64,000 nt of DNA from NCBI GenBank assembly GCA_902634045.1, contig CACPJE010000001.1, positions 4,319 through 68,318 on the forward strand. The letters run 5' to 3'. This stretch comes from an uncultured Pelagibacteraceae bacterium. Lineage in GTDB: Bacteria; Pseudomonadota; Alphaproteobacteria; Pelagibacterales; AG-422-B15. Position 1 is the first letter of the stretch. Each line of letters begins with the position of its first letter. Below the pieces are notes generated by a model. The model was not told the origin of the DNA and ran no database searches. It saw only the letters and a program-made list of their open reading frames with translations. Positions 33,680 to 46,627 of the stretch are shown piece by piece. The translations under genes were made by a program, and so were the position numbers.

Positions 33680-34588
33680 ATGACTTCTGATACCAGCAAT
33701 AAATATTTTCTTGGATTCTTCCTAGCTCTTGCAGCAGGTTTAATATGGAGCTTTGGCGCGCCTACCATTCGATACATGATAGATGCACAGATATATCAGT
33801 GGCATTATCTGTTCTGCAGAGGGATTATGGTAGCAACAGTACTAGTAGTTTTTTTATTATACAAAGAAGGACTGGCATTTCGTCATAATTTTAGAAGAGT
33901 AGGGCTATCAGGCTTAATTGGTGGTGTAGGATTAGCATTTGCATTTATCTTTTTTATATTTGGGATGACATTTACTTCTGCTGCGACAACTTTATTCATG
34001 ATTGGAACTCAGCCACTATTTTCAGGGTTACTTGCTTATATCTTTTTACGAGAACATGTTAGATCAGCTACAATAATTGCATGTTTCATTTCATTGTTTG
34101 GAATGTTTTTAATGGCATATAATGATTGGCAGGTAGGAACTTTGCTTGGCTGGTTGTTTGGACTGCTGTGTTCAATTGGATTTTCTATTTTTGCAGCAAG
34201 CTTACGATGGCGACCAGAAACTCCAAAATTTACTACAATTATTATAGCAGGAATAACTTGTTCACTATTTTCTGTAATTATGATTGTTATTTCTGGAGAT
34301 GAGTTTTCAATGCCTCTTAGAAATGTGCTGCTTAGTATGTTTCATGGAACATTAGTTGCTACAGGTTTAATTTGTCTTAGCATTGGAGCAAGATACTTAC
34401 CAGCAGCAGAATTTATGCTTCTTTCTTTGTTGGAAGTAGTAGGAGGTGTTTTGTGGTGTTGGATGCCGATCTTTGGAATAAACGAAGTGCCATCAATAAT
34501 TACTTTGTTTGGAGGAGCAGCAATTATTTTTGCTATTGCTTATCATGCTGTTGGAATGAGGCAGCAATCGACTCCGCCAACACTATAA
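33680..34588 (+). CDS. EamA/DMT-family permease
   Basis: 302 aa, about 10 TM, with a two-fold EamA-type repeat architecture. Confidence 0.8.
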   Translation: MTSDTSNKYFLGFFLALAAGLIWSFGAPTIRYMIDAQIYQWHYLFCRGIMVATVLVVFLLYKEGLAFRHNFRRVGLSGLIGGVGLAFAFIFFIFGMTFTSAATTLFMIGTQPLFSGLLAYIFLREHVRSATIIACFISLFGMFLMAYNDWQVGTLLGWLFGLLCSIGFSIFAASLRWRPETPKFTTIIIAGITCSLFSVIMIVISGDEFSMPLRNVLLSMFHGTLVATGLICLSIGARYLPAAEFMLLSLLEVVGGVLWCWMPIFGINEVPSIITLFGGAAIIFAIAYHAVGMRQQSTPPTL

Positions 34589-34607
34589 ATCTAGAAAGGA
34601 ATAAAAT

Positions 34608-35552
34608 ATGAAAGTAGGGTTTATTGGTTTAGGAAATGTTGGCTTCAAGTTGGCAAGTAGCCTACTTGAAACAGGGTTTGATATTAGTATTTATGATTTG
34701 GAGCGTTCAACAGCGAAGCCATTAGAAGACGCCGGAGCAAAGTGGGTTAATTCACCAAAAGAAATCGCAGATTCTTCAAATATTTGCATAACTTGTTTGC
34801 CAAGTCCAAAGGCAGTCTCTGAGGTTCTAGAAGGTGAGGAAGGATTGTTGCAAGGTTTGTCCGCGGGCAAACTATGGGTGGAAATGAGTACTACTGACAG
34901 TAATGAAATGAGTAGATTATCGGATCTTGTTCTAAATAAAGGCGCATTTGCACTTGAGGCACCTGTGTCCGGTGGTTGTCATAGAGCATCAACAGGAAAT
35001 ATTGCAATACTTGCAGGAGGGTCAAGAGAGGCATTTGAAATGGCATTACCAGCCCTAAAAGCTATAGGGCATGAGATACTTCATGTTGGAGAATTAGGCA
35101 GTGCATCTATTTTAAAAGTTGTAACCAATTATTTAGCATCTACTCATTTGGTAGCATTGGGCGAAGCTTTAATGGTATGTAAAAAATCAGGACTTGATTT
35201 ACCTACTGTATTTAAAGGTATTAAAATAAGTTCAGGTAATAGTTTTGTCCACGAAACTGAGAGTCAAGTTATTATGAATGGAAGTTATAATATTAATTTT
35301 ACTATGGATCTGGTATGCAAAGACGTTGGGCTTTTTGACCAACTAACAAAAGATAAAAAAATACCTGCAGAAATATCACCTTTACTCAAAGATATTTTTC
35401 AAGATGGAAGAAATCGTTTTGGCGATCGTGCATGGTCATCTATGATTGTTAAACGTTTAGAAGAAGCTTGTGAAACAAATTTAAGAGCTGAAGGATTTCC
35501 AGCTGAACTTGTTGATACAACACCAAGAAGAGAAGGTCACGAAATAAAATAA
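34608..35552 (+). CDS. NAD(P)-dependent 3-hydroxyisobutyrate dehydrogenase-family oxidoreductase
   Basis: 314 aa with an N-terminal Rossmann motif (KVGFIGLGNVG) and the length and layout of the HIBADH/6PGDH-like family. Confidence 0.85.
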   Translation: MKVGFIGLGNVGFKLASSLLETGFDISIYDLERSTAKPLEDAGAKWVNSPKEIADSSNICITCLPSPKAVSEVLEGEEGLLQGLSAGKLWVEMSTTDSNEMSRLSDLVLNKGAFALEAPVSGGCHRASTGNIAILAGGSREAFEMALPALKAIGHEILHVGELGSASILKVVTNYLASTHLVALGEALMVCKKSGLDLPTVFKGIKISSGNSFVHETESQVIMNGSYNINFTMDLVCKDVGLFDQLTKDKKIPAEISPLLKDIFQDGRNRFGDRAWSSMIVKRLEEACETNLRAEGFPAELVDTTPRREGHEIK

Positions 35553-36715
35553 TGTCAGAAATAAATTCAACAAATTGGAATTATCCAACTCCTATATGGT
35601 TTGGTTTTAATCGTATTGCCGATATTGACTCAGCTTTAAAGGAAATGGGTATTACTAAACCTCTTATTGTTACGGATCCTCAATTTTCAGAAAATGATAG
35701 TTTCAAGAAAATTTCAAAAGCATTAGATAATAAATCAATTTCTCATTCGATCTTTACTGAGATAAAAGGGAATCCAACTGGAAAGAATGTTAGCGATGGA
35801 GTTAAAAAATTTCGTTCGGAATCTCATGATGGAGTTATTGCAATTGGAGGAGGAAGTTCTTTAGATGCAGGAAAAGCTATAGCATTTATGTCTGTTCAAT
35901 CAGAAAACCTTTGGTTTTTTGAGGATGTTGGGGACAATTGGACTAAGGCAGTGACAGAAAGTCTTCCAAAAGTTATTGCTATTCCAACAACTGCAGGCAC
36001 AGGATCTGAAACTGGGAGAGCTTCATTAATTGTAGATGAAACAAATCTGACGAAAAAAATAATTTTTCACCCATCACTATTGCCTGATTTAGTAATTTTG
36101 GATCCTGAATTGACTTTTACGCTACCTCCTCATTTGACGGCGGCAACTGGCATGGATGCATTCGCACATTGCCTTGAGGCTTACTGTGCAAGAGGATTTC
36201 ATCCAATGGCTGATGGCATTGCTGTTGAAGGAATAAAAAATATTAAAGATTATTTAGTTACTGCATATAAGGATCCATCCAATAAAATTGCACGAGCAAA
36301 AATGTTAGTTACTTCATCAATGGGTTCAACTGCCTTTCAAAAAGGATTAGGAGCGATTCATTCTTTGAGTCATCCAATCAACGCAGTAAATGATATTCAT
36401 CACGGTCTATCCAATGCAATATTTATGCCTTATGTTTTAAAGTTCAATAAAGATGTAATAGAAGACAGATTAATCTTATTATCTAAATATATTGAGCTAA
36501 AGGATCAAACTTTTGATGGAATTATGAATTGGGTTCTAGAACTAAGAAATGATCTGTCGATCCCTCATACATTAAAAGATTTGAATGTAGAATTTAATTT
36601 TGATTTATTATCGCCTATGGCATTAAAAGATCCTTCAACTGGACCAAACCCAAAAGATATTTCATTGGACGAAATGAAACAACTTTACATAGATTCTTAT
36701 GAAGGTAATTTATAA
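35552..36715 (+). CDS. Iron-containing (class III) alcohol dehydrogenase
   Basis: 387 aa with GGGSSLDAGKA and metal-site histidines (AFAHCLEAY, HSLSHP). Confidence 0.88.
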   Translation: MSEINSTNWNYPTPIWFGFNRIADIDSALKEMGITKPLIVTDPQFSENDSFKKISKALDNKSISHSIFTEIKGNPTGKNVSDGVKKFRSESHDGVIAIGGGSSLDAGKAIAFMSVQSENLWFFEDVGDNWTKAVTESLPKVIAIPTTAGTGSETGRASLIVDETNLTKKIIFHPSLLPDLVILDPELTFTLPPHLTAATGMDAFAHCLEAYCARGFHPMADGIAVEGIKNIKDYLVTAYKDPSNKIARAKMLVTSSMGSTAFQKGLGAIHSLSHPINAVNDIHHGLSNAIFMPYVLKFNKDVIEDRLILLSKYIELKDQTFDGIMNWVLELRNDLSIPHTLKDLNVEFNFDLLSPMALKDPSTGPNPKDISLDEMKQLYIDSYEGNL

Positions 36716-36717
36716 CC

Positions 36718-37455
36718 ATGATCAAGACTGAACAAATAACTTATGGAGATGTTAATTCTGAATTAAAATTTCAAGGCACGATTAGTTTTGATGATGAATC
36801 AACATCACATCGACCTGGTATTTTAGTTTGCCATGCATATGGCGGACACTCTGAGTTTGATATACAAAAATCTGAGAAACTTGCAGAGCTAGGATACTTT
36901 GCTTTTGCAATGGATTTGTATGGAGCAGGTAGAAGAGGTAGTAACCCACAAGAATCAATGGCTTTAATGAATGAGTTTAATTCTGACCGTGTTTTATTGC
37001 AGGAGAGAATGATCAATGCATTCAATTTACTAAAGAGTTTTGATCGTGTTGACGAAAATAAAACGGGAGCAATAGGTTTCTGTTTTGGAGGAAAATGTGC
37101 ATTAGACCTAGCAAGGGCAGGTGAAGATGTTAAAGGAGTTGTTAGTTTTCATGGTTTATATGATGCGCCGACTGCAAATCCAGGAAAAACACTAAAAAGT
37201 ACAACCAAGATTTCTAGCTCTATATTAATTCTACATGGCTATGAAGACCCCATGGCAACACCAAAAAACATGATTGATCTTGCTGAAGAACTAAAGTCGA
37301 AAAGTGCTAATTGGCAGATACATGCTTATAGCAATGTAGGACATGCATTTACCAATCCGAATGCTGATGATCGAAATTCAGGATTATTTTATGATCAAGC
37401 TGCAGATGAACATTCATGGCAAGAAATGAAAAACTTTTTTGATTTAATCTTTTAG
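36718..37455 (+). CDS. Dienelactone hydrolase-family alpha/beta hydrolase
   Basis: 245 aa with nucleophile elbow GFCFGG (Cys), HGYEDP and VGHAF. Confidence 0.83.
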   Translation: MIKTEQITYGDVNSELKFQGTISFDDESTSHRPGILVCHAYGGHSEFDIQKSEKLAELGYFAFAMDLYGAGRRGSNPQESMALMNEFNSDRVLLQERMINAFNLLKSFDRVDENKTGAIGFCFGGKCALDLARAGEDVKGVVSFHGLYDAPTANPGKTLKSTTKISSSILILHGYEDPMATPKNMIDLAEELKSKSANWQIHAYSNVGHAFTNPNADDRNSGLFYDQAADEHSWQEMKNFFDLIF

Positions 37456-38292
37456 ACTATCGGCTCTTTCTACATTTCTTTCATAATGTATTGGAAGAAC
37501 TTTTCCATAAACAACTCTTGCATGTTCTGGGGTATTAACTCTCCATCCATCTAAAGTATATGTAGGGAGAGCAATATATCTTGTCGTTTTACCTTCTACT
37601 TTACTTACTCGGTGCATAGAATAACGACCTTTAAAAATTTGAAGATCACCAACTTCTAATTCTAGAACTCGAACATTTTCTCTGTCGCCATCTAGAACTC
37701 TTTTAACCCCTTCAAAATTTTCATCATTAGGCTTTCTGAGATTAGGAACGTATTCAAAGTTACCTCCCTCATCTGCTTTTTGAATTAGGATACTTAAAGT
37801 GAATTCATTACTATCAAAGTGCCAGGGGAAGTAATTTCCAGGATCCATACAATTGTAGACATTTTTTGCCAATGGATCAGCCCAATGGAATAAAGGTTTG
37901 ATATCCAAACAATTGGAAACTAAATCTTTTAATTCTTCTCTATGATATAAAATATTTAAGTCCGAGTCTTCTGGTATGAGATCCCCATTTAGGTAACCAT
38001 TGTTCCGGTCTCCAAAAGAATTAATTGGATGATTATTAGGGAAAGAAGAATCTTTTTTAGTAAAATAAGGGTTGTGACTTTCATCTGACCAGTAAACCTG
38101 ACTTCGTTTTGAATTAATTTCATTGAGCATCTTATTAATTGAATTAGGTTGAACAAAATTTGAAAGTACACAACATCCAATTGTGTCTAATTCATTCTTA
38201 CAATACGCCGTTAATTCTTTATAAATTTTTGAATTTAAATCATGAATTGGGTATTCATTTAAGTTTACAATATCTGATAAAGAGATTGTCAT
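37444..38292 (-). CDS. Putative Fe(II)/2-oxoglutarate-dependent oxygenase, substrate unknown
   Basis: 282 aa. HxD (WHFDSNE) plus a distal His (YSMHRVS) are compatible with a 2-His-1-carboxylate facial triad. Lies 16 nt downstream of the GS-like gene on the same strand. Confidence 0.55.
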   Translation of the reverse strand: MTISLSDIVNLNEYPIHDLNSKIYKELTAYCKNELDTIGCCVLSNFVQPNSINKMLNEINSKRSQVYWSDESHNPYFTKKDSSFPNNHPINSFGDRNNGYLNGDLIPEDSDLNILYHREELKDLVSNCLDIKPLFHWADPLAKNVYNCMDPGNYFPWHFDSNEFTLSILIQKADEGGNFEYVPNLRKPNDENFEGVKRVLDGDRENVRVLELEVGDLQIFKGRYSMHRVSKVEGKTTRYIALPTYTLDGWRVNTPEHARVVYGKVLPIHYERNVERADSLKD

Positions 38293-38308
38293 ATATTGGT
38301 TTTATTAA

Positions 38309-39628
38309 TTAGCAATCAATCGCATTATTTCGAGACCATTCACTTTTTTGACCTTCAGGTTGTTTATCGTATTCTTTAAGTTCCCTATTTTTGAGTTTAA
38401 TATATTTTGAGACAACACTGGATCCAAAGGCATTCTTGGCTACTTTACTTTCTTTGAAAAGTTTTAGAGCTTTATCTAGGGTTTTAGGGAGTTTTTTAAC
38501 TCTTTTTAGCTTATGGCCTTGAGTGTACATATTGATATCCAATCTTTTTCCAGGAGATCTCTTATTATTTATTCCATCCAATCCAAGACCAAGCATTCCT
38601 GCTTGAAGTAGATAAGGATTTGCCGAACCATCAGCGTGTCTTACTTCAAATCTTCCTGCATCAGGAATTCTAACCATATGAGTACGATTGTTTCCTGTGT
38701 ATGTAACAGTACTCGGAGACCATGTTGCGCCAGAGAGAGTATTTGATGCATCAATTCGACCAAAACTATTTAGTGAAGGATTAAACCAAGCAGAAAAACA
38801 ATCTGCTGACTTCATAATCCCTCCAATAAAAGAATAACCTAATTTAGATAATCCAAGTTCTCCATTCTCATCTAAAAATAAATTTTTCTTTTTTTTCTGA
38901 TCCCAAATTGAAACATGAACATGGCAACCATTTCCTGTTAGGTCTGGAAAAGGTTTTGGCATGAAAGTTGCTCGCAGACCATGTTTTTCAGCAATTGATT
39001 TAACCATGAATTTAAAGAAGACGTGTCGATCGGCGGTAGTCAGGCAATCAGCATAATTCCAATTCATTTCAAATTGACCATTTGCATCTTCATGATCATT
39101 TTGATATGGCTTCCATCCTAACTTTAACATTGAGTCACATATTTCTTTAATCACGTCATATCTGCGCATTAAAGTTGATTGGTCATAGCATGGTTTCGCA
39201 GCTGTATCGCGTTTATCATCAACTTCAGTTCCATCCTCACTTAATAAGAAAAACTCACATTCAACACCAGTTTGCATGACCATATTTTTTTCATTCAGTT
39301 TCTCTATCTGTCGCTTAAGAACTACTCTTGGACATTGTTCAACAATCTTGCCATCCATTACTAGATCACTTGCTAGCCAACCTACTTCTGGTTGCCAAGG
39401 TAATTGAATAAGGCTTTTTGGATCAGGCATTGCAAGCATATCTGAGTCAGCAGGTGACATATCTAAGTATGTTGCGAAACCGGCAAAACCAGCTCCATTT
39501 TTCTGCATCTCTGCTATTGCTTGAGTTGGAACAAGCTTTGCTCTTAAAACTCCAAATAAGTCTACAAAACTAATTAAAAAATATTTAATTTTTTTTTGTG
39601 ATGCGACTTTTGATAAATTGATACTCAT
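38309..39628 (-). CDS. Glutamine synthetase-like enzyme (type III/GlnT-like); candidate gamma-glutamylmethylamide or gamma-glutamyl-polyamine synthetase
   Basis: 439 aa with a GS catalytic-domain motif (GNGCHVHVSIW) and a GS beta-grasp N-terminus. The context is a methylated-amine island. Confidence 0.85.
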   Translation of the reverse strand: MSINLSKVASQKKIKYFLISFVDLFGVLRAKLVPTQAIAEMQKNGAGFAGFATYLDMSPADSDMLAMPDPKSLIQLPWQPEVGWLASDLVMDGKIVEQCPRVVLKRQIEKLNEKNMVMQTGVECEFFLLSEDGTEVDDKRDTAAKPCYDQSTLMRRYDVIKEICDSMLKLGWKPYQNDHEDANGQFEMNWNYADCLTTADRHVFFKFMVKSIAEKHGLRATFMPKPFPDLTGNGCHVHVSIWDQKKKKNLFLDENGELGLSKLGYSFIGGIMKSADCFSAWFNPSLNSFGRIDASNTLSGATWSPSTVTYTGNNRTHMVRIPDAGRFEVRHADGSANPYLLQAGMLGLGLDGINNKRSPGKRLDINMYTQGHKLKRVKKLPKTLDKALKLFKESKVAKNAFGSSVVSKYIKLKNRELKEYDKQPEGQKSEWSRNNAIDC

Positions 39629-39681: not shown

Positions 39682-40704
39682 ATGGCTAAAATTCGCAAAT
39701 CTACACCATATCAAGATGGCTTTATAATGCCTGGACGCTTTGAAAGACATAGAGGTTCATTAATTTCATGGCCGACAAAAGGCGAAAAAGAACCAGAACT
39801 ATTCAGAGATGAGATAGTTGAAGTAGTAAAAAAAATGGCTAAATACGAAGAAACATTTTTAGTTGCAGACCATAGTGATGTAGAGGAAGCAAAACATCGT
39901 TGCGGTATTTCGGCAAAAATTATTGCTGCAGATACTGAGTTTGCTTGGATAAGAGATAATGGACCCATGTTTGTAAAAAACACTAAAGGCGAAATCGCTG
40001 CAGTTAAATTTCAATTTAATGGATGGGGAGATAAGTATCCAACTTATGAAAGGGTAGGGAGTGTTCCAAATACTATTGCAGAATATTTTAATGTTCCTTT
40101 ATATGAAGCACCTTTTATTCTTGAGGGTGGAGCTATTTGTGTTGATGGAGAAGGTACATTAATTGCAACGGAGCAAACGTTGTTAAATCAGAATCGCAAT
40201 CCTTCTATGAGCAAAGATGATATAGAGAAAGGATTAAAAGACTATTTAGGAATTGAAAAAGTTATTTGGTTATACAAAGGTTTTTATGAAGATACTGAAA
40301 CTGATGGTCACGTGGACAATGTGATTGAATTTATTACTCCAGGAAAAGTTATTGTGCAGACTTGCTCAGACAATGAAAATCCTAATTTTGATATTCTTAA
40401 AGAAAATTTATCTCGCTTGAAATCAGCAACAGATGCAAGGGGTAGAAAATTGGAAATAGTTGAGTTTGATTATCTTCCTTATACTCGTTCAATTGATGGT
40501 GTTAAGTATCCTACTCCTTATCCAAACTATTATGTTATGAATGGTGCAATAATAGTTCCACAAGTAGGTTGGAAAGGCGAGCTTCAAGCGGTCACAGAGT
40601 TGCAAAGAATATTTCCTAAATTAGATGTTGTAGAGGCTCCTAGTACTTATCAAGCTGTTGGTGGCGGTGGATTAGGCTGTATGACACAACAAATCCCAGA
40701 ATAA
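39682..40704 (+). CDS. aguA: Agmatine deiminase-family (PAD_porph) enzyme
   Basis: 340 aa with WIRDNGP, FNGWG, EGGAICVDGEGT, TDGHVDN and the C-terminal catalytic-Cys motif GGGGLGCMTQQ. Confidence 0.82.
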   Translation: MAKIRKSTPYQDGFIMPGRFERHRGSLISWPTKGEKEPELFRDEIVEVVKKMAKYEETFLVADHSDVEEAKHRCGISAKIIAADTEFAWIRDNGPMFVKNTKGEIAAVKFQFNGWGDKYPTYERVGSVPNTIAEYFNVPLYEAPFILEGGAICVDGEGTLIATEQTLLNQNRNPSMSKDDIEKGLKDYLGIEKVIWLYKGFYEDTETDGHVDNVIEFITPGKVIVQTCSDNENPNFDILKENLSRLKSATDARGRKLEIVEFDYLPYTRSIDGVKYPTPYPNYYVMNGAIIVPQVGWKGELQAVTELQRIFPKLDVVEAPSTYQAVGGGGLGCMTQQIPE

Positions 40705-40727
40705 TTAGATTTATCAAGGCACTTATT

Positions 40728-41510
40728 ATGTACAAGTATTTATTGTGGATTTTAAAAATAGGAACCTTAATTAATATATATTTCCTATTACAAACAATAA
40801 TTTCACCAATTTCAAATGTAGATTCCTTCCTTCTTATTCCTGCACAAATTTTATTTTTGGTTTCCGCTTATAGGTGTATGTTTCCTGTAAACTACTCTTC
40901 ACACGCTGTTTTACACAATAATGTATTTTCATCAGTATTTATAACAAGGTTTCTTGTAACTTTTGTTGAAATTTCATACATCTTTATGTTTAGTCATGTC
41001 ATTAGAATAATTAATAATCATGAAATTTTAATTGTAGATATTTTTAGTTGGTTAATGGTTATACAAGTTAGTATTTCTCAAATTTTTGTTTGGTGTGCAA
41101 TATTAACAAAGAATGAAAATTTATATTTTTACGAGGAGATAGGATGGTTCAATATTTTTTTATTAAATTTCGTATGCAGTGTAATTATTTTATTAAGCTT
41201 TATTGATTTTAATAATCTTGAAATTTTACTTTATTTGAACTTACTTTTTGGAATAGGTTACTTGCCGTGGCAAATATTTCATCTTAAATCAATTAAAACT
41301 AGAATAAATAAGCTAAAAAATGATAGTTCAGGAAATTATGTAAGAACAACACTACTTGTAGGTTTTAAAAGTTCTCTTAAAAGAAGAGTTGTTAGTCATA
41401 ATCCTGAAGATTGGGGAGGAATAATTGGATTTACTTGGATGTTAAATTATTTCGTTACACTTATACCGGTATGGGTTTATTTTATTCTTTACACTTTTTC
41501 AGTAAATTAG
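40728..41510 (+). CDS. Polytopic membrane protein, unknown function
   Basis: 260 aa with about 6-7 hydrophobic helices and no motif I recognise. Markedly more AT-rich than its neighbours. Confidence 0.6.
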   Translation: MYKYLLWILKIGTLINIYFLLQTIISPISNVDSFLLIPAQILFLVSAYRCMFPVNYSSHAVLHNNVFSSVFITRFLVTFVEISYIFMFSHVIRIINNHEILIVDIFSWLMVIQVSISQIFVWCAILTKNENLYFYEEIGWFNIFLLNFVCSVIILLSFIDFNNLEILLYLNLLFGIGYLPWQIFHLKSIKTRINKLKNDSSGNYVRTTLLVGFKSSLKRRVVSHNPEDWGGIIGFTWMLNYFVTLIPVWVYFILYTFSVN

Positions 41511-41512
41511 TT

Positions 41513-42100
41513 TTATTCTCCTGAATAACCATATTCAAGAGCCGCATCAGTAATTGCGTGGTGAAAGGACTCACCGAAACTTCTCAAGGCCATTAGATTA
41601 TATGTTAAAGGACTGTCATCTATCATATCAACTGAAATTGTAATTCCATGATATACTGAATTCACGCAGTTATCTTTCTTAAAGTCATTAAAGTTAAAAG
41701 GACATCCTTTTTTAAGGACGTTTAAAGCATCCTCACCTTTTATTTGAATTATTGCCCTTGAGTGTGAGATATCTGTTACTGCGAAGTCCTCATTATTAAA
41801 GGTATTTTCTATAATAGGAGAAATATTATTATCATTTGAAAAGATAATCCATGAACGCGGAGCGAACCATTGTATTCTTGTTTGCCCAGCAACTGATACT
41901 TCTGCTGCATTAGAAGGTAAATTAATTGATCCAAGTTGGATATTACTAGTTACAACAGATGACTTTTTATATTGAACAACTTGATAAATATTTACATTAG
42001 TAATTTCTCTGATTTCTAACAGATTACCTTCATTTTTTTCTTGATAATCGCCAAACAGACCTTTGTTATGAGCGTTTTGAAGAGGAGAAATTCTACTCAT
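41513..42100 (-). CDS. soxG: Sarcosine oxidase-type gamma subunit
   Basis: 195 aa. ATGA overlap with the soxA stop. Size and operon position match SoxG. Confidence 0.75.
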   Translation of the reverse strand: MSRISPLQNAHNKGLFGDYQEKNEGNLLEIREITNVNIYQVVQYKKSSVVTSNIQLGSINLPSNAAEVSVAGQTRIQWFAPRSWIIFSNDNNISPIIENTFNNEDFAVTDISHSRAIIQIKGEDALNVLKKGCPFNFNDFKKDNCVNSVYHGITISVDMIDDSPLTYNLMALRSFGESFHHAITDAALEYGYSGE

Positions 42101-45093
42101 GACCTTACCCTTTCTCCATCGGGATCCACATAGTGCTGACTAACAACCTCAACAGGAATACTCATATTTTTTACAGGAGATACTGCAAATAATTTTTCTC
42201 CTTTTCTATTTTTACCATTTTTTATAATTGCTAATGAAAAAGGATTATTGTGCTCAACACTCCAGCAAGAAGCAGATACATGACCTAATTTTGGAATAGG
42301 AAATTCTGCATTTGGATTTTCTACAATATACGATCCTTCAGGGATTGAAGTTTTTTTATCAACTGGAACAATTCCGACAATTCTTTCTCTATTTTCATCA
42401 TTAAAAGCTACTCTATTTAAAGATCTTTTTCCGATGAAATCTTTTTTCTTACTTAGCATTCCATCAAGTCCCAAATCACTTGCAATTAATCTTCCATCGA
42501 TTTCTGAACCTGCTACATGCCCCATCTCAATTCGCAGCGTAGATAATGCTTCTGTCCCATATGGTTGAATGCCTAATCCTTCCCCAGCTTCAATAATTTT
42601 ATCCCACATAAATTCTCCAAAGTCTGACATTACATTGACTTCGTATGCAAGTTCTCCAGAAAAAGAAATTCTAAATATTCGAGCAGTTGTATCAAAGAAT
42701 TTAAATTCTCTATAACCCATAAATGGAAGACCTTCGTTAGATAGATCTTCATTTGGAAATAATTTACTTAAAAGCTTTCTTGAGTTTGGACCAGCTACTG
42801 CTGCTCCTGCCCATTGTTCTGTTGTAGAAAAAACATTAACTTCAAGTTCAGGCCATACTATTTGTAGATAGTATTCTAAGTGAGAGAGTACATTAGCTGC
42901 TTGGGCTGTTGTAGTTGTCATGTGAAAATGATTTTCATTAATTCGAGTTGTTGTTCCATCATCAAATACCATCCCATCTTCACGTAACATTACTCCGTAT
43001 CGGGCTTTACCTACTGGGAGTTTTAGCCAGGCATTTGTGTAAACTCTGTTTAAAAATTCTGCTGAATCTGGACCTTTAATATCGATTTTACCTAATGACG
43101 TTACATCACAGATACCAACATTTTTTCTTACGTTTGAAGCCTCTCTTTTTGCCGCTTCTTGTAACGTTTCATTGCCTTGTTTGTAATAACGTGGTCTCAA
43201 CCATAACCCTGCATCTACAAACACCGCATTGTTTCTTTCATGCCATTCGTGCATTGGAGATTTTCTAGTTGCTTTATAATATTTACTTACTTCACGACCA
43301 ATAATTGTTCCAATAGTCACAGATGTGTATGGTGGTCGAAAAGTAGTGTGTCCAACTTCAGGGACGATTTTCTTTTCAATATTTGATACGAGTTGTAATC
43401 CATTTAAATTGCTTGTTTTACCCTGATCTGTTGCCATACCAAGAGTTGTGTACCGCTTAACGTGTTCAATTGATCTAAATCCTTCTCTGACAGCAAGTTC
43501 AATATCTGATACTGCTACATCATTCTGAAAGTCGACAAATCTTTTATAATGTTTTCCTTCAGGTAAAGGCATGCACCAAAACTTATCATGATTACCTAAG
43601 TTTTTTTCATCAGATATAGGAGCATCAGTTTTAATATTTTTATTGGTAATTTTATTAGAGCTTTTGAAGCCTTGTTCGAATCCATCGTTTAATGACTCCA
43701 TTAGAGTGAAAGACCCATTAGCAGCTCCAATAACTACTTCCTGTTGTCGAGATTGATTTGGAAGGAAAGTATCTGAATCTGAATCAAACTTTAATTTATT
43801 CCCTGACTGTGAAGCAAGATGGACTGTAGGAGTCCAATTTCCTGAAACACATATACAATCGCAATCAATTTTTTGAAGACTGGTGAATGAATTTTTATTT
43901 TTATTTAATTTTCCAACTGTCGCTGATTTAACTTTGAGATGTCCAGTTGTATTTGCTATTCCGTGTTCAAACAATATATCTATACCCATCTTTTGAGCTT
44001 CACCTACAATTTGATTTTCTGAAGAGGGTCTGGTGTCTAAGATAGTAGATTGGATGCCATTCTTTTTAAATTCAATAGCAGCTTCATATGCACTATCATT
44101 ATTTGTAAAAAAGATAGGTTTTTTGCCCACTGCAACTCCATAAACTTTTAAATATTCTTTTGCAGCTGAGGCCAGTAGTATTCCAGGCCTGTCGTTATTA
44201 GAGAAGACAAGTGGACGTTCTATTGAACCAGTTGAAATAATTACTTCTTTAGCCCGTATGTACCAAAGTTTTTCTCTTGGAGTAAAGTTTTTAGGGTCTT
44301 GAAGATGATCTCTTTTTCTTTCAAACATCACCAACATATTATGATCATAATATCCAAAAACTTGTGACCTACTTTTTGTAATAACATTTGGCATCGATTT
44401 TAATTCAGCAATAACATCGTCAACCCATTCCTCCCCTTTTTTATTTCCAATTGTAACTTCATCAGTCAATAGACTTCCACCAAATCGAGGCTTATCCTCT
44501 GCAAGTATTACTCTTGCGCCATTTTTTGCTGCCGCCAGTGTGCTTGAAAGTCCTGATGGACCTGAGCCAACAACAAGAACATCACAGTGTTCATATTGAT
44601 GCTCATATCTGTCTGGGTCCGGATCTAAAGATGCCACTCCAAATCCTGCTGCTTTTCTAATGAAAGGTTCATAGATTCTATACCAAAAACTTTTTGGCCA
44701 CATAAAAGTTTTGTAATAAAAACCCGCAGGAAAAAATCTATTCAATAAGTTATTTATTTCGCCAATATCAAGTTTCACGGACGGCCAACAATTTTGACTT
44801 TTAAGCTCAAGACCTTCAACCAATTCATATTCTGTAAGATTAACATTTGGTTCAGAATAACCTTCTTTGATTAATTGAACTTTAGCACTTGGATCATCTA
44901 CTCCAGCACCAAAAATTCCTCTAGGTCGATGATACTTAAAACTTCTAGCAATTAAGTGAACTCCGTTAGCTATAAGAGCTGAAGCTAGAGTATCTCCTTT
45001 GTATCCAAAATATTTTTTGCCATTAAATATAAAAGAAATTTTATGATTTTTATCAATAAGCCCAATATTTTTTAATCTATAATTTTGAGTCAT
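42097..45093 (-). CDS. soxA: Sarcosine oxidase-type alpha subunit
   Basis: 998 aa. Dinucleotide-binding site VVGSGPSGLS and a C-terminal GcvT-like folate-binding domain. Confidence 0.9.
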   Translation of the reverse strand: MTQNYRLKNIGLIDKNHKISFIFNGKKYFGYKGDTLASALIANGVHLIARSFKYHRPRGIFGAGVDDPSAKVQLIKEGYSEPNVNLTEYELVEGLELKSQNCWPSVKLDIGEINNLLNRFFPAGFYYKTFMWPKSFWYRIYEPFIRKAAGFGVASLDPDPDRYEHQYEHCDVLVVGSGPSGLSSTLAAAKNGARVILAEDKPRFGGSLLTDEVTIGNKKGEEWVDDVIAELKSMPNVITKSRSQVFGYYDHNMLVMFERKRDHLQDPKNFTPREKLWYIRAKEVIISTGSIERPLVFSNNDRPGILLASAAKEYLKVYGVAVGKKPIFFTNNDSAYEAAIEFKKNGIQSTILDTRPSSENQIVGEAQKMGIDILFEHGIANTTGHLKVKSATVGKLNKNKNSFTSLQKIDCDCICVSGNWTPTVHLASQSGNKLKFDSDSDTFLPNQSRQQEVVIGAANGSFTLMESLNDGFEQGFKSSNKITNKNIKTDAPISDEKNLGNHDKFWCMPLPEGKHYKRFVDFQNDVAVSDIELAVREGFRSIEHVKRYTTLGMATDQGKTSNLNGLQLVSNIEKKIVPEVGHTTFRPPYTSVTIGTIIGREVSKYYKATRKSPMHEWHERNNAVFVDAGLWLRPRYYKQGNETLQEAAKREASNVRKNVGICDVTSLGKIDIKGPDSAEFLNRVYTNAWLKLPVGKARYGVMLREDGMVFDDGTTTRINENHFHMTTTTAQAANVLSHLEYYLQIVWPELEVNVFSTTEQWAGAAVAGPNSRKLLSKLFPNEDLSNEGLPFMGYREFKFFDTTARIFRISFSGELAYEVNVMSDFGEFMWDKIIEAGEGLGIQPYGTEALSTLRIEMGHVAGSEIDGRLIASDLGLDGMLSKKKDFIGKRSLNRVAFNDENRERIVGIVPVDKKTSIPEGSYIVENPNAEFPIPKLGHVSASCWSVEHNNPFSLAIIKNGKNRKGEKLFAVSPVKNMSIPVEVVSQHYVDPDGERVRS

Positions 45094-45368
45094 GAGTGTT
45101 CTTCTTTGTTACTGCTGAGCTCATAAGTTTCTATAATTTCATGAGTTGCAGTATTTCTCTTAGCTTTAAACCATTGTCTACAGCCTGAAATATGTTGCCA
45201 TAGCTCTAAATGGTCTCCTCGTGGATTCTTTCTGTAATAAACAAATGTATCCCATTCTTCATCAGAAACTTCAGTATTTAGCTTTGGTCGTTTTATGGTT
45301 GCGTCTCCTCCATAGGCAAATTCATTTTGTGATCGTTTACCGCAATAAGGACATTTAATTTCAAGCAT
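45090..45368 (-). CDS. soxD: Sarcosine oxidase-type delta subunit
   Basis: 92 aa with an N-terminal CPYCG zinc-ribbon-like motif, located between soxB and soxA. Confidence 0.88.
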   Translation of the reverse strand: MLEIKCPYCGKRSQNEFAYGGDATIKRPKLNTEVSDEEWDTFVYYRKNPRGDHLELWQHISGCRQWFKAKRNTATHEIIETYELSSNKEEHS

Positions 45369-45370
45369 AA

Positions 45371-46627
45371 TTAGCTAATCCAAGTTTTTGTTCCTATACC
45401 CTTTTCATCTATGAGGTGTCCAGTATTAAACCTATCAAGCCTAAAAGGAGCATTTAATTCATGAACTTCATCTTTAGCAATTGTATGAGCGAAGGTTAGA
45501 CCTGAAACCGGAGTGGCTTTAAATCCACCGTAACACCAACCACAGTTTAAATATAATCCATCTATATGAGTTTTATCTATAATTGGAGAGGTATCCATAG
45601 ACATATCCATTATTCCACCCCAGGTTCTTAGCATCTTAAGACGACTTAAATTTGGAAAGAGTGCAACTCCTTCAGTTAATACATGCTGAATAGTCGGAAG
45701 ATTTCCTCTCTGAGCGTAACTGTTATAACCATCAAGATCTCCACCCATCACCATCTCACCTTTATCAGATTGACTGCAATAGAAATGACCTGCACCAAAT
45801 GTTACAACTTGATCCAGAAGAGGTTTAATAGGTTCTGATACGCAAGCCTGTAAGACATGTGCTTCAATAGGTAAAGTCATATTAAGTTTTTCAGCAAGTA
45901 ATGATGTACTTCCAGCAACACATAGACCAATTTTTTTTGCTTTTATATTTCCTCGAGAAGTTTGAACTCCTTTTATCTTTCCGTTACTAACATCAAATCC
46001 AGTAACCTCACAATTTTGAATAATATCTATACCATGATCGTCAGCTCCTCTTGCGTATCCCCAAGCTACAGCATCGTGTCTTGCGGTTCCACCTGATGAC
46101 TGAAATAATCCTCCAAAGATTGGAAAACGACAGTTTGAGGAAAAATCTGCAAATGGAATCATTTTTTTAACATCTTCTCTATTTAATAATTTTGCATCGA
46201 TACCATTTAGCCGCATAGAATTTCCTCTTCTTGAGTAGGTATTCATTTGTGCATCAGAATGCGCAAGATTTAAAATTCCTCGAGGAGAGTACATCACATT
46301 ATAATTTAACTCCTGACTTAGATCCCTCCACATCTGCATTCCTTTTTCGTAGAAAAGATTATTTGCGTTATGCATATAATTTGAACGAAGGATTGTTGTA
46401 TTTCTTCCAACGTTTCCTCCACCAATCCATCCCTTTTCAAGAATTGCAACATTTCGGATATTAAAATTTTTGGCAAGATAATATGCGGTAGCTAAACCAT
46501 GTCCACCACCACCAATAATAATTACTTCATATTCTTTTTTTGGCTCAGGATCTCTCCATGCAACATCCCAATTTTGATGATAAGAAAAAGCATTATTGAT
46601 CAGACTAAAGACTGAGTATTTTTTCAT
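45371..46627 (-). CDS. soxB: Sarcosine oxidase-type beta subunit
   Basis: 418 aa with FAD site IIIGGGGHGLATAYYLA. First gene of the BDAG order. Confidence 0.9.
   Translation of the reverse strand: MKKYSVFSLINNAFSYHQNWDVAWRDPEPKKEYEVIIIGGGGHGLATAYYLAKNFNIRNVAILEKGWIGGGNVGRNTTILRSNYMHNANNLFYEKGMQMWRDLSQELNYNVMYSPRGILNLAHSDAQMNTYSRRGNSMRLNGIDAKLLNREDVKKMIPFADFSSNCRFPIFGGLFQSSGGTARHDAVAWGYARGADDHGIDIIQNCEVTGFDVSNGKIKGVQTSRGNIKAKKIGLCVAGSTSLLAEKLNMTLPIEAHVLQACVSEPIKPLLDQVVTFGAGHFYCSQSDKGEMVMGGDLDGYNSYAQRGNLPTIQHVLTEGVALFPNLSRLKMLRTWGGIMDMSMDTSPIIDKTHIDGLYLNCGWCYGGFKATPVSGLTFAHTIAKDEVHELNAPFRLDRFNTGHLIDEKGIGTKTWIS

Follow-up and report, generated by a model that had tools for sequence, protein, structure and literature searches.

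Gene loss as the probable origin of the adjacency of gmaS and a HalD/BesD-superfamily hydroxylase gene in a SAR11 catabolic island

The window analyzed here, 64 kb of contig C1 from an uncultured bacterium of the SAR11 order, carries a pair of minus-strand genes in close proximity. The first, gmaS (38309..39628), encodes a 439-aa GmaS ortholog (P0001); the second (37444..38292) encodes a 282-aa Fe(II)/2-oxoglutarate (2OG) hydroxylase of the HalD/BesD superfamily (P0002), and only 16 nt (38293..38308) separate the stop codon of gmaS from the start of the hydroxylase gene. The coordinates and the spacer bear out the layout described in the original prediction, which inferred that the two genes could provide consecutive steps of one route. 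We consider it likely instead that two functionally separate genes were made neighbors by the deletion of three genes, encoding an SDR protein, an M24 hydrolase and a HIBADH-like dehydrogenase, so that the pair would have arisen by ordinary gene loss within a catabolic island of SAR11. The source genome (G000; 892 kb in 49 contigs) is 61% complete.

The reading of the spacer as a deletion junction follows from the gene order on a metagenome contig of a close relative (L139), whose proteins are 95% (GmaS), 90% (SoxA) and 84% (hydroxylase) identical to those of the window. On this contig, soxA and soxG are followed by aguA, by a run of genes for GmaS, SDR, the M24 hydrolase, the HIBADH-like protein and the hydroxylase, and finally by genes for a dienelactone-hydrolase-like protein (DLH), Fe-ADH and HIBADH, with the gmaS-to-hydroxylase run converging on the last three. 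Other relatives preserve parts of the same order. Sister genera of the same family (G008, G005, G004) have gmaS followed by the SDR gene, both converging on the Fe-ADH gene; the frame in G004 (96% complete) matches that of the window, with soxBDAG, gmaS, Fe-ADH, HIBADH, EamA and a glycoside operon. The M24 and HIBADH-like genes also stand upstream of hydroxylases with 84-85% identity to P0002 in L049 and L140, and in L048 and L141, as in L139, a hydroxylase of 84% identity has the genes for DLH, Fe-ADH and HIBADH on its downstream side. We therefore propose an ancestral module of M24, HIBADH-like and hydroxylase genes that would have been located downstream of gmaS and the SDR gene, facing the operon of DLH, Fe-ADH, HIBADH and EamA. 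In the genus of the window, the SDR, M24 and HIBADH-like genes would have been lost, leaving the hydroxylase gene 16 nt behind gmaS, where it is now probably read through from the gmaS promoter. The junction holds no recognizable relic of the three genes. At its 3' end, the hydroxylase gene overlaps the convergent DLH-like gene by 12 nt (37444-37455); there is no such overlap in L139.

A sequence scan found neither a terminator-like hairpin nor a minus-strand promoter-like site in or near the spacer, and read-through transcription of both genes is therefore plausible. The scan returned fewer promoter-like sites than shuffled sequences did, hence it is uninformative beyond the lack of a terminator. 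The G+C content of the window is low (30-38%). What the data show directly are the fold and ligands of the hydroxylase, the phyletic pattern, the synteny and the purifying selection; the read-through, the polarity of the deletion and, as discussed below, the substrate class of the hydroxylase are inferred.

The hydroxylase gene itself is intact and under purifying selection. The ratio of nonsynonymous to synonymous substitution rates (dN/dS) of P0002 is 0.07 relative to a 98%-identical copy in the same arrangement, and about 0.10 relative to 84%-identical orthologs that are not rearranged. These values bear on the possibility that the hydroxylase is an orphaned remnant without a role in any pathway, en route to loss. 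Such a fate would agree with the three module genes missing relative to L139 and with the rarity of the gene in the family, where it occurs in one of 59 other genomes; but the reading frame is intact, all ligands are kept, the lower of the two ratios was obtained between two rearranged genomes, two metagenome contigs (L137 and L138) share the arrangement, and the window still has another HIBADH-like gene, at a distance of three genes from the hydroxylase. We give this explanation hardly any credence.

The conservation of the gene pair, a check named by the original prediction, was assessed in 101 relatives. GmaS orthologs are found in 84 and the oxygenase in 25 of these genomes, and both genes are adjacent only in the source genome and its congener G001, the single-cell assembly AG-313-D09 (54% complete). 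Together with L137 and L138, the rearranged form is represented by four independent sequences. In complete Pelagibacter genomes a distance of 22-67 kb lies between them, and none of the 84 hydroxylase loci analyzed outside the genus has a GmaS homolog within its 10-kb flanks.

This distribution tells against the two-step route that had been proposed, in which GmaS would join methylamine or a polyamine to glutamate and the oxygenase, transcribed with it, would oxidatively remove a methyl group from the resulting gamma-glutamyl amide or hydroxylate it, bypassing N-methylglutamate synthase. The original prediction itself listed a lack of conservation of the pair among the outcomes that would refute the route, and this outcome was observed. 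The pairing is confined to one genus, and in L139 three genes stand between the hydroxylase and a GmaS with 95% identity to that of the window. Moreover, G004 and the 42 gmaS-bearing genomes of genus g3 are devoid of the hydroxylase, which hence cannot be a general partner of GmaS. The 16-nt gap on the same strand without a terminator-like site, the purifying selection on the hydroxylase in the adjacent arrangement, and the failure to find a gmaS-adjacent glxBCD set in G000, G001 and G004 would all be expected of such a route; the source genome, however, possesses a second glutamine synthetase (GS)-like gene together with a glxBCD-like set, a combination that accompanies gmaS in 32 of 35 Pelagibacter genomes. 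On balance we regard the route as very unlikely. A methylamine bypass, if true, would have altered the modeling of marine methylamine turnover, but it is unsupported, and the adjacency to gmaS is unfit as a basis for annotating the oxygenase.

The genes for the canonical synthase, mgsABC (GATase, GXGXG and Glu_synthase-like), are indeed missing from the 64-kb window, as had been noted. The same contig, however, carries a related set some 10-15 kb past the end of the window (L013:10364-14995), consisting of a 490-aa GS-like gene (299 bits against TIGR03105, below the cut-off) followed by GATase, GXGXG and Glu_synthase-like genes. This set (set 1) is a paralog of the gmaS-adjacent glxBCD of Pelagibacter (set 2), with Glu_synthase-like subunits that are 50-51% identical between both. 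Set 1 was found in 38 of the 101 relatives, among them 32 of 35 Pelagibacter genomes as well as G000, G001 and G004; set 2 was found in 24 relatives, including 20 of the 35 Pelagibacter genomes, and not in G000, G001 or G004 at their respective 61%, 54% and 96% completeness. The Glu_synthase-like subunit of set 1 is unusually conserved (91-97% identity across SAR11 families), and in Pelagibacter genomes this set is found at a distance of 4-6 kb from gmaS. In the sister genus g2, the gmaS ortholog is located head to head with glxBCD. In genus g3, gmaS occurs in 42 of 47 genomes with neither set at the thresholds used. In SAR11 it is common for gmaS to occur in the absence of set 2 and, since the lineages concerned include some without the hydroxylase, the latter is not the general downstream partner of GmaS.

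The identity of the ligase was assigned by family models, solved structures and conserved residues. P0001 contains a Gln-synt_C domain (Pfam, E 6e-92) and passes the equivalog model TIGR03105 ("type III GS") with 623.9 bits (cut-off 469.6), whereas the model for gamma-glutamylputrescine synthetase yields only 234 bits (cut-off 650). The nearest solved relative is the GmaS of Rhodovulum (7cql, E 1.4e-168), followed by a "glutamate--methylamine ligase" (9qur, E 7e-95), with ordinary glutamine synthetases far behind. In the Rhodovulum enzyme (RhGmaS), the catalytic residues Asp177, Glu186 and Arg312 as well as six Mg ligands have been defined (PMC7948447). All of these are kept in P0001, where E123, E125, D178, E180, E187, H236, R315 and E328 align with E122, E124, D177, E179, E186, H235, R312 and E325 of RhGmaS, respectively. 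The same gene has been named glnT, a putative GmaS of Pelagibacter (PMC3160333). The connection with GmaS drawn in the original prediction agrees with these matches, which support P0001 as the SAR11 ortholog of GmaS, predicted to catalyze the ATP-dependent ligation of methylamine to glutamate, with the amine preference likewise a prediction.

The second protein had been proposed to be an Fe(II)/2OG oxygenase on account of an HxD...H arrangement, and profile and structure searches confirm both the fold and the triad. The motifs WHFDSNE and YSMHRVS correspond to residues 157-163 and 224-230 of P0002, and H158, D160, H227 and R238 are invariant across 70 homologs (28-85% identity). The corresponding codons lie within 37579..37821 on the minus strand: H158 at 37819-37821, D160 at 37813-37815, H227 at 37612-37614 and R238 at 37579-37581. 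From its position 11 residues past the distal histidine, R238 would be the ligand of the 2OG C5 carboxylate. Pfam assigns P0002 to HalD (PF23169, E 8e-11; 42.1 bits, gathering score 26), with weaker matches to WelO5 and 2OG-FeII_Oxy_3; NCBIfam has no matching model. A search of solved structures with the single sequence returned only noise (symplekin, E about 1), and a profile of the 70 homologs was needed to retrieve HalB (E 2e-15), then HalD (E 4e-12), BesD and lysine hydroxylases from the PDB. The AlphaFold2 model (predicted local distance difference test 96.2, predicted template-modeling score 0.92) has a jelly-roll fold. Its top Foldseek matches (7u6h, 7u6j, 6nie and 7jsd) are Fe/2OG enzymes with a probability of 1.00, TM-scores of 0.64-0.75 and 13-17% identity, and ranks 1-38 all belong to the HalD/BesD family.

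The WHFD motif of P0002 (H158-x-D160) aligns with WHWG in HalB. P0002 is therefore an oxygenase of the hydroxylase type, as HxD stands where the halogenases have HxG. A halogenase was considered and rejected: the aspartate ligand D160 is invariant, and the HxG/A motif with a halide site that characterizes halogenases is lacking. The current database name of the clade, "HalD/BesD family halogenase", is misleading for its HxD-bearing members. A further difference concerns residues 88-96 (about 38005-38031 in the window), which read HP[IVL]N in P0002 and a subclade with 64-85% identity and HP[KR]R in most homologs. The stretch aligns, in a region where the sequence alignment is uncertain, near Arg83 of HalB, which binds the substrate carboxylate (PMC10041140). 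To judge from this motif, the subclade of P0002 may act on a different substrate than the main Pelagibacter clade.

The relatives of P0002 form a separate and abundant clade without a characterized member. At 90% identity it falls into about 2,200 clusters, mainly marine, some of which contain thousands of metagenomic members. A scan with one genome per species, based on an alignment of 14 sequences, detected a relative in 552 species genomes, mostly of SAR11. A literature search returned no paper on the clade in SAR11, and a paper on dimethylsulfoxonium propionate (DMSOP; PMC10686828) names no oxygenase. Some Pelagibacter genomes carry two hydroxylase paralogs with about 52-55% identity to P0002 (L071, L094, L121, L122 and L140; G074, G078, G079, G086, G087 and G097), either in tandem or in two islands; the two copies in L140 flank an aldolase and an FrhB-like gene.

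The recurrent neighbors of the hydroxylase point away from methylamine metabolism. Its most common context in Pelagibacter is a glycine-betaine oxidation island consisting of genes for OpuAC, a Rieske oxygenase, BHMT, DMGDH, a methyltransferase, the M24 protein, a small kinase-like and a cytidylyltransferase-like protein and the hydroxylase, followed by a crotonase, a CoA-binding protein, a BT1 transporter, a second DMGDH-like gene and an electron transfer flavoprotein. Of 80 SAR11 loci, DMGDH is present in 52, the M24 gene in 50, the Rieske oxygenase in 44 and OpuAC in 41. In other SAR11 lineages the hydroxylase heads a run of genes for a HIBADH-like (or 3HCDH) protein, a class II aldolase, an FrhB-like protein and members of the enolase superfamily. 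Beyond SAR11, an OpuAC-type binding protein and enolase-superfamily enzymes occur within 10 kb in three of four gammaproteobacterial loci, and in Pseudomonas taeanensis the M24 gene directly follows the hydroxylase. The M24 protein is nearest to DddP, with matches to 4b28 and 4rzy at E 1e-84; it is, however, a paralog, since its score against the NCBIfam DddP model (375 bits) falls below the equivalog cut-off of 600.

Two smaller features of these neighborhoods were observed. Genes for a 135-aa P-loop kinase-like and a 124-135-aa cytidylyltransferase-like protein are located directly upstream of the hydroxylase within the betaine island in 47-54 of the 80 SAR11 loci (for example L030:8724-9505). 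In one SAR11 lineage (L026:8001-9221 and L027), genes for a Rieske oxygenase and Methyltransf_33 come before the hydroxylase and a GFA-family gene, similar to glutathione-dependent formaldehyde-activating enzymes, comes after it, which fits a formaldehyde-releasing demethylation nearby.

This gene neighborhood leads us to propose that P0002 would hydroxylate a C-H bond in a small zwitterionic osmolyte, either a betaine or an N-methyl amino acid by type, or possibly a sulfonium compound. In the mechanism envisaged, H158, D160 and H227 would bind Fe(II) and R238 would bind 2OG; a betaine or N-methylated amino acid would be hydroxylated at a C-H bond, the hydroxyl group would be oxidized by the beta-hydroxyacid dehydrogenase, and a C-C cleavage or demethylation would follow. 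Tentatively, the hydroxylase, the DddP-like M24 protein and the hydroxyacid dehydrogenase might together constitute an unrecognized route for osmolytes of the betaine or dimethylsulfoniopropionate (DMSP) type, by hydroxylation, oxidation to a keto compound and cleavage, of which the window would hold a trimmed copy driven by the gmaS promoter within a methylated-amine island.

A different substrate is suggested by the enzymes with known structure. HalB, HalD, BesD, HalA and 7jsd, the nearest solved folds or profile matches, act on free lysine or ornithine, and an agmatine-deiminase-like gene lies nearby; P0002 could accordingly be a hydroxylase of free basic amino acids (lysine, ornithine or arginine type) unrelated to betaines. 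Yet it is no more than 13-17% identical to those enzymes, its subclade has Ile/Val-Asn near the position of HalB Arg83 (PMC10041140) in place of the Lys/Arg-Arg found in most family members, and the recurrent neighbors are of the betaine and DMSP type rather than genes of lysine or ornithine catabolism. We judge this alternative improbable.

Several points weigh against the interpretation given here, in which a betaine-type hydroxylase came to lie behind gmaS by deletion. That genes were deleted in the window, rather than inserted in L139, is a matter of parsimony drawn from few genomes. The hydroxylase is intact, constrained and without sign of a promoter of its own behind gmaS, so that a secondary functional link between both genes is conceivable. 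The gmaS-adjacent glxBCD set is also absent, as searched, from G000, G001 and G004 alike. Concerning the substrate class, gene neighborhood is what defines it for the whole clade; most of the loci belong to SAR11 kin and are not independent of each other; and SAR11 genomes crowd genes for methyl-group and osmolyte metabolism into few islands, hence co-location may partly mirror island structure.

Around the pair, gene content varies on both flanks of gmaS. On the plus strand, convergent with the hydroxylase, an operon (33680..37455; Pfam and NCBIfam) encodes an EamA permease, a HIBADH-like dehydrogenase, Fe-ADH and the dienelactone-hydrolase-like protein. On the other side, the slot between gmaS and soxG (39682-41510) contains the agmatine-deiminase-like gene (39682..40704, plus strand, divergent from gmaS; PAD_porph E 1e-90, TIGR03380 292 bits, below the cut-off of 382) and a gene for a 260-aa protein without family match. 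The same slot is occupied by a single Abhydrolase_3 gene in G004 and by glxBCD in genus g2. Beyond it follows a soxBDAG-family block (41513..46627, minus strand; Pfam) encoding a four-subunit oxidase or dehydrogenase of the sarcosine oxidase or N-methylglutamate dehydrogenase type. G004 has a syntenic block. The one in the window matches TIGR01372-01375 at the subfamily level; because only subfamily-level models exist, it is not separable from mgdABCD by profile.

What retains interest is thus an abundant and misnamed clade of hydroxylases located in islands for the oxidation of betaine, DMSP and methyl groups, and to establish what its members act on would close a gap in our picture of osmolyte metabolism in the most abundant heterotroph of the ocean. 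With respect to known systems, the closest for the ligase is the N-methylglutamate pathway (GmaS, MgsABC/GlxBCD and MgdABCD), which has been proposed for Pelagibacter HTCC1062 (PMC3160333) and for which the GmaS of Rhodovulum has been solved (PMC7948447). P0001 is a close ortholog of GmaS and a soxBDAG-family operon lies 1.9 kb away, but gmaS in the window is not located beside glxBCD, a paralogous set with the 490-aa GS-like gene is found instead, and the oxygenase has no counterpart in this pathway. The M24 gene of the relatives, which the window lacks, is nearest to DddP, an M24-type DMSP lyase (4b28, 4rzy), but below its equivalog cut-off. In betaine catabolism, a gamma-butyrobetaine hydroxylase acts first and is followed by a carnitine dehydrogenase. 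The relatives of P0002 show a similar gene logic, with the hydroxylase followed by an NAD-dependent hydroxyacid dehydrogenase (HIBADH-like, or 3HCDH in L025) and betaine-type binding proteins and demethylases nearby; the analogy is one of gene logic only, as gamma-butyrobetaine hydroxylase is of the TauD type, whereas P0002 is of the HalD/BesD type. With BesD, HalA, HalB, HalD and their hydroxylase homolog (6nie, 7u6j, 7u6h, 7jsd; PF23169), P0002 shares the jelly-roll fold, a length of about 250-280 aa and equivalent positions of the metal ligands, and it would likewise function alone, on a soluble substrate of small size; it differs from them in its low identity of 13-17%, in having HxD rather than HxG, and in its location in catabolic islands rather than in natural-product clusters.

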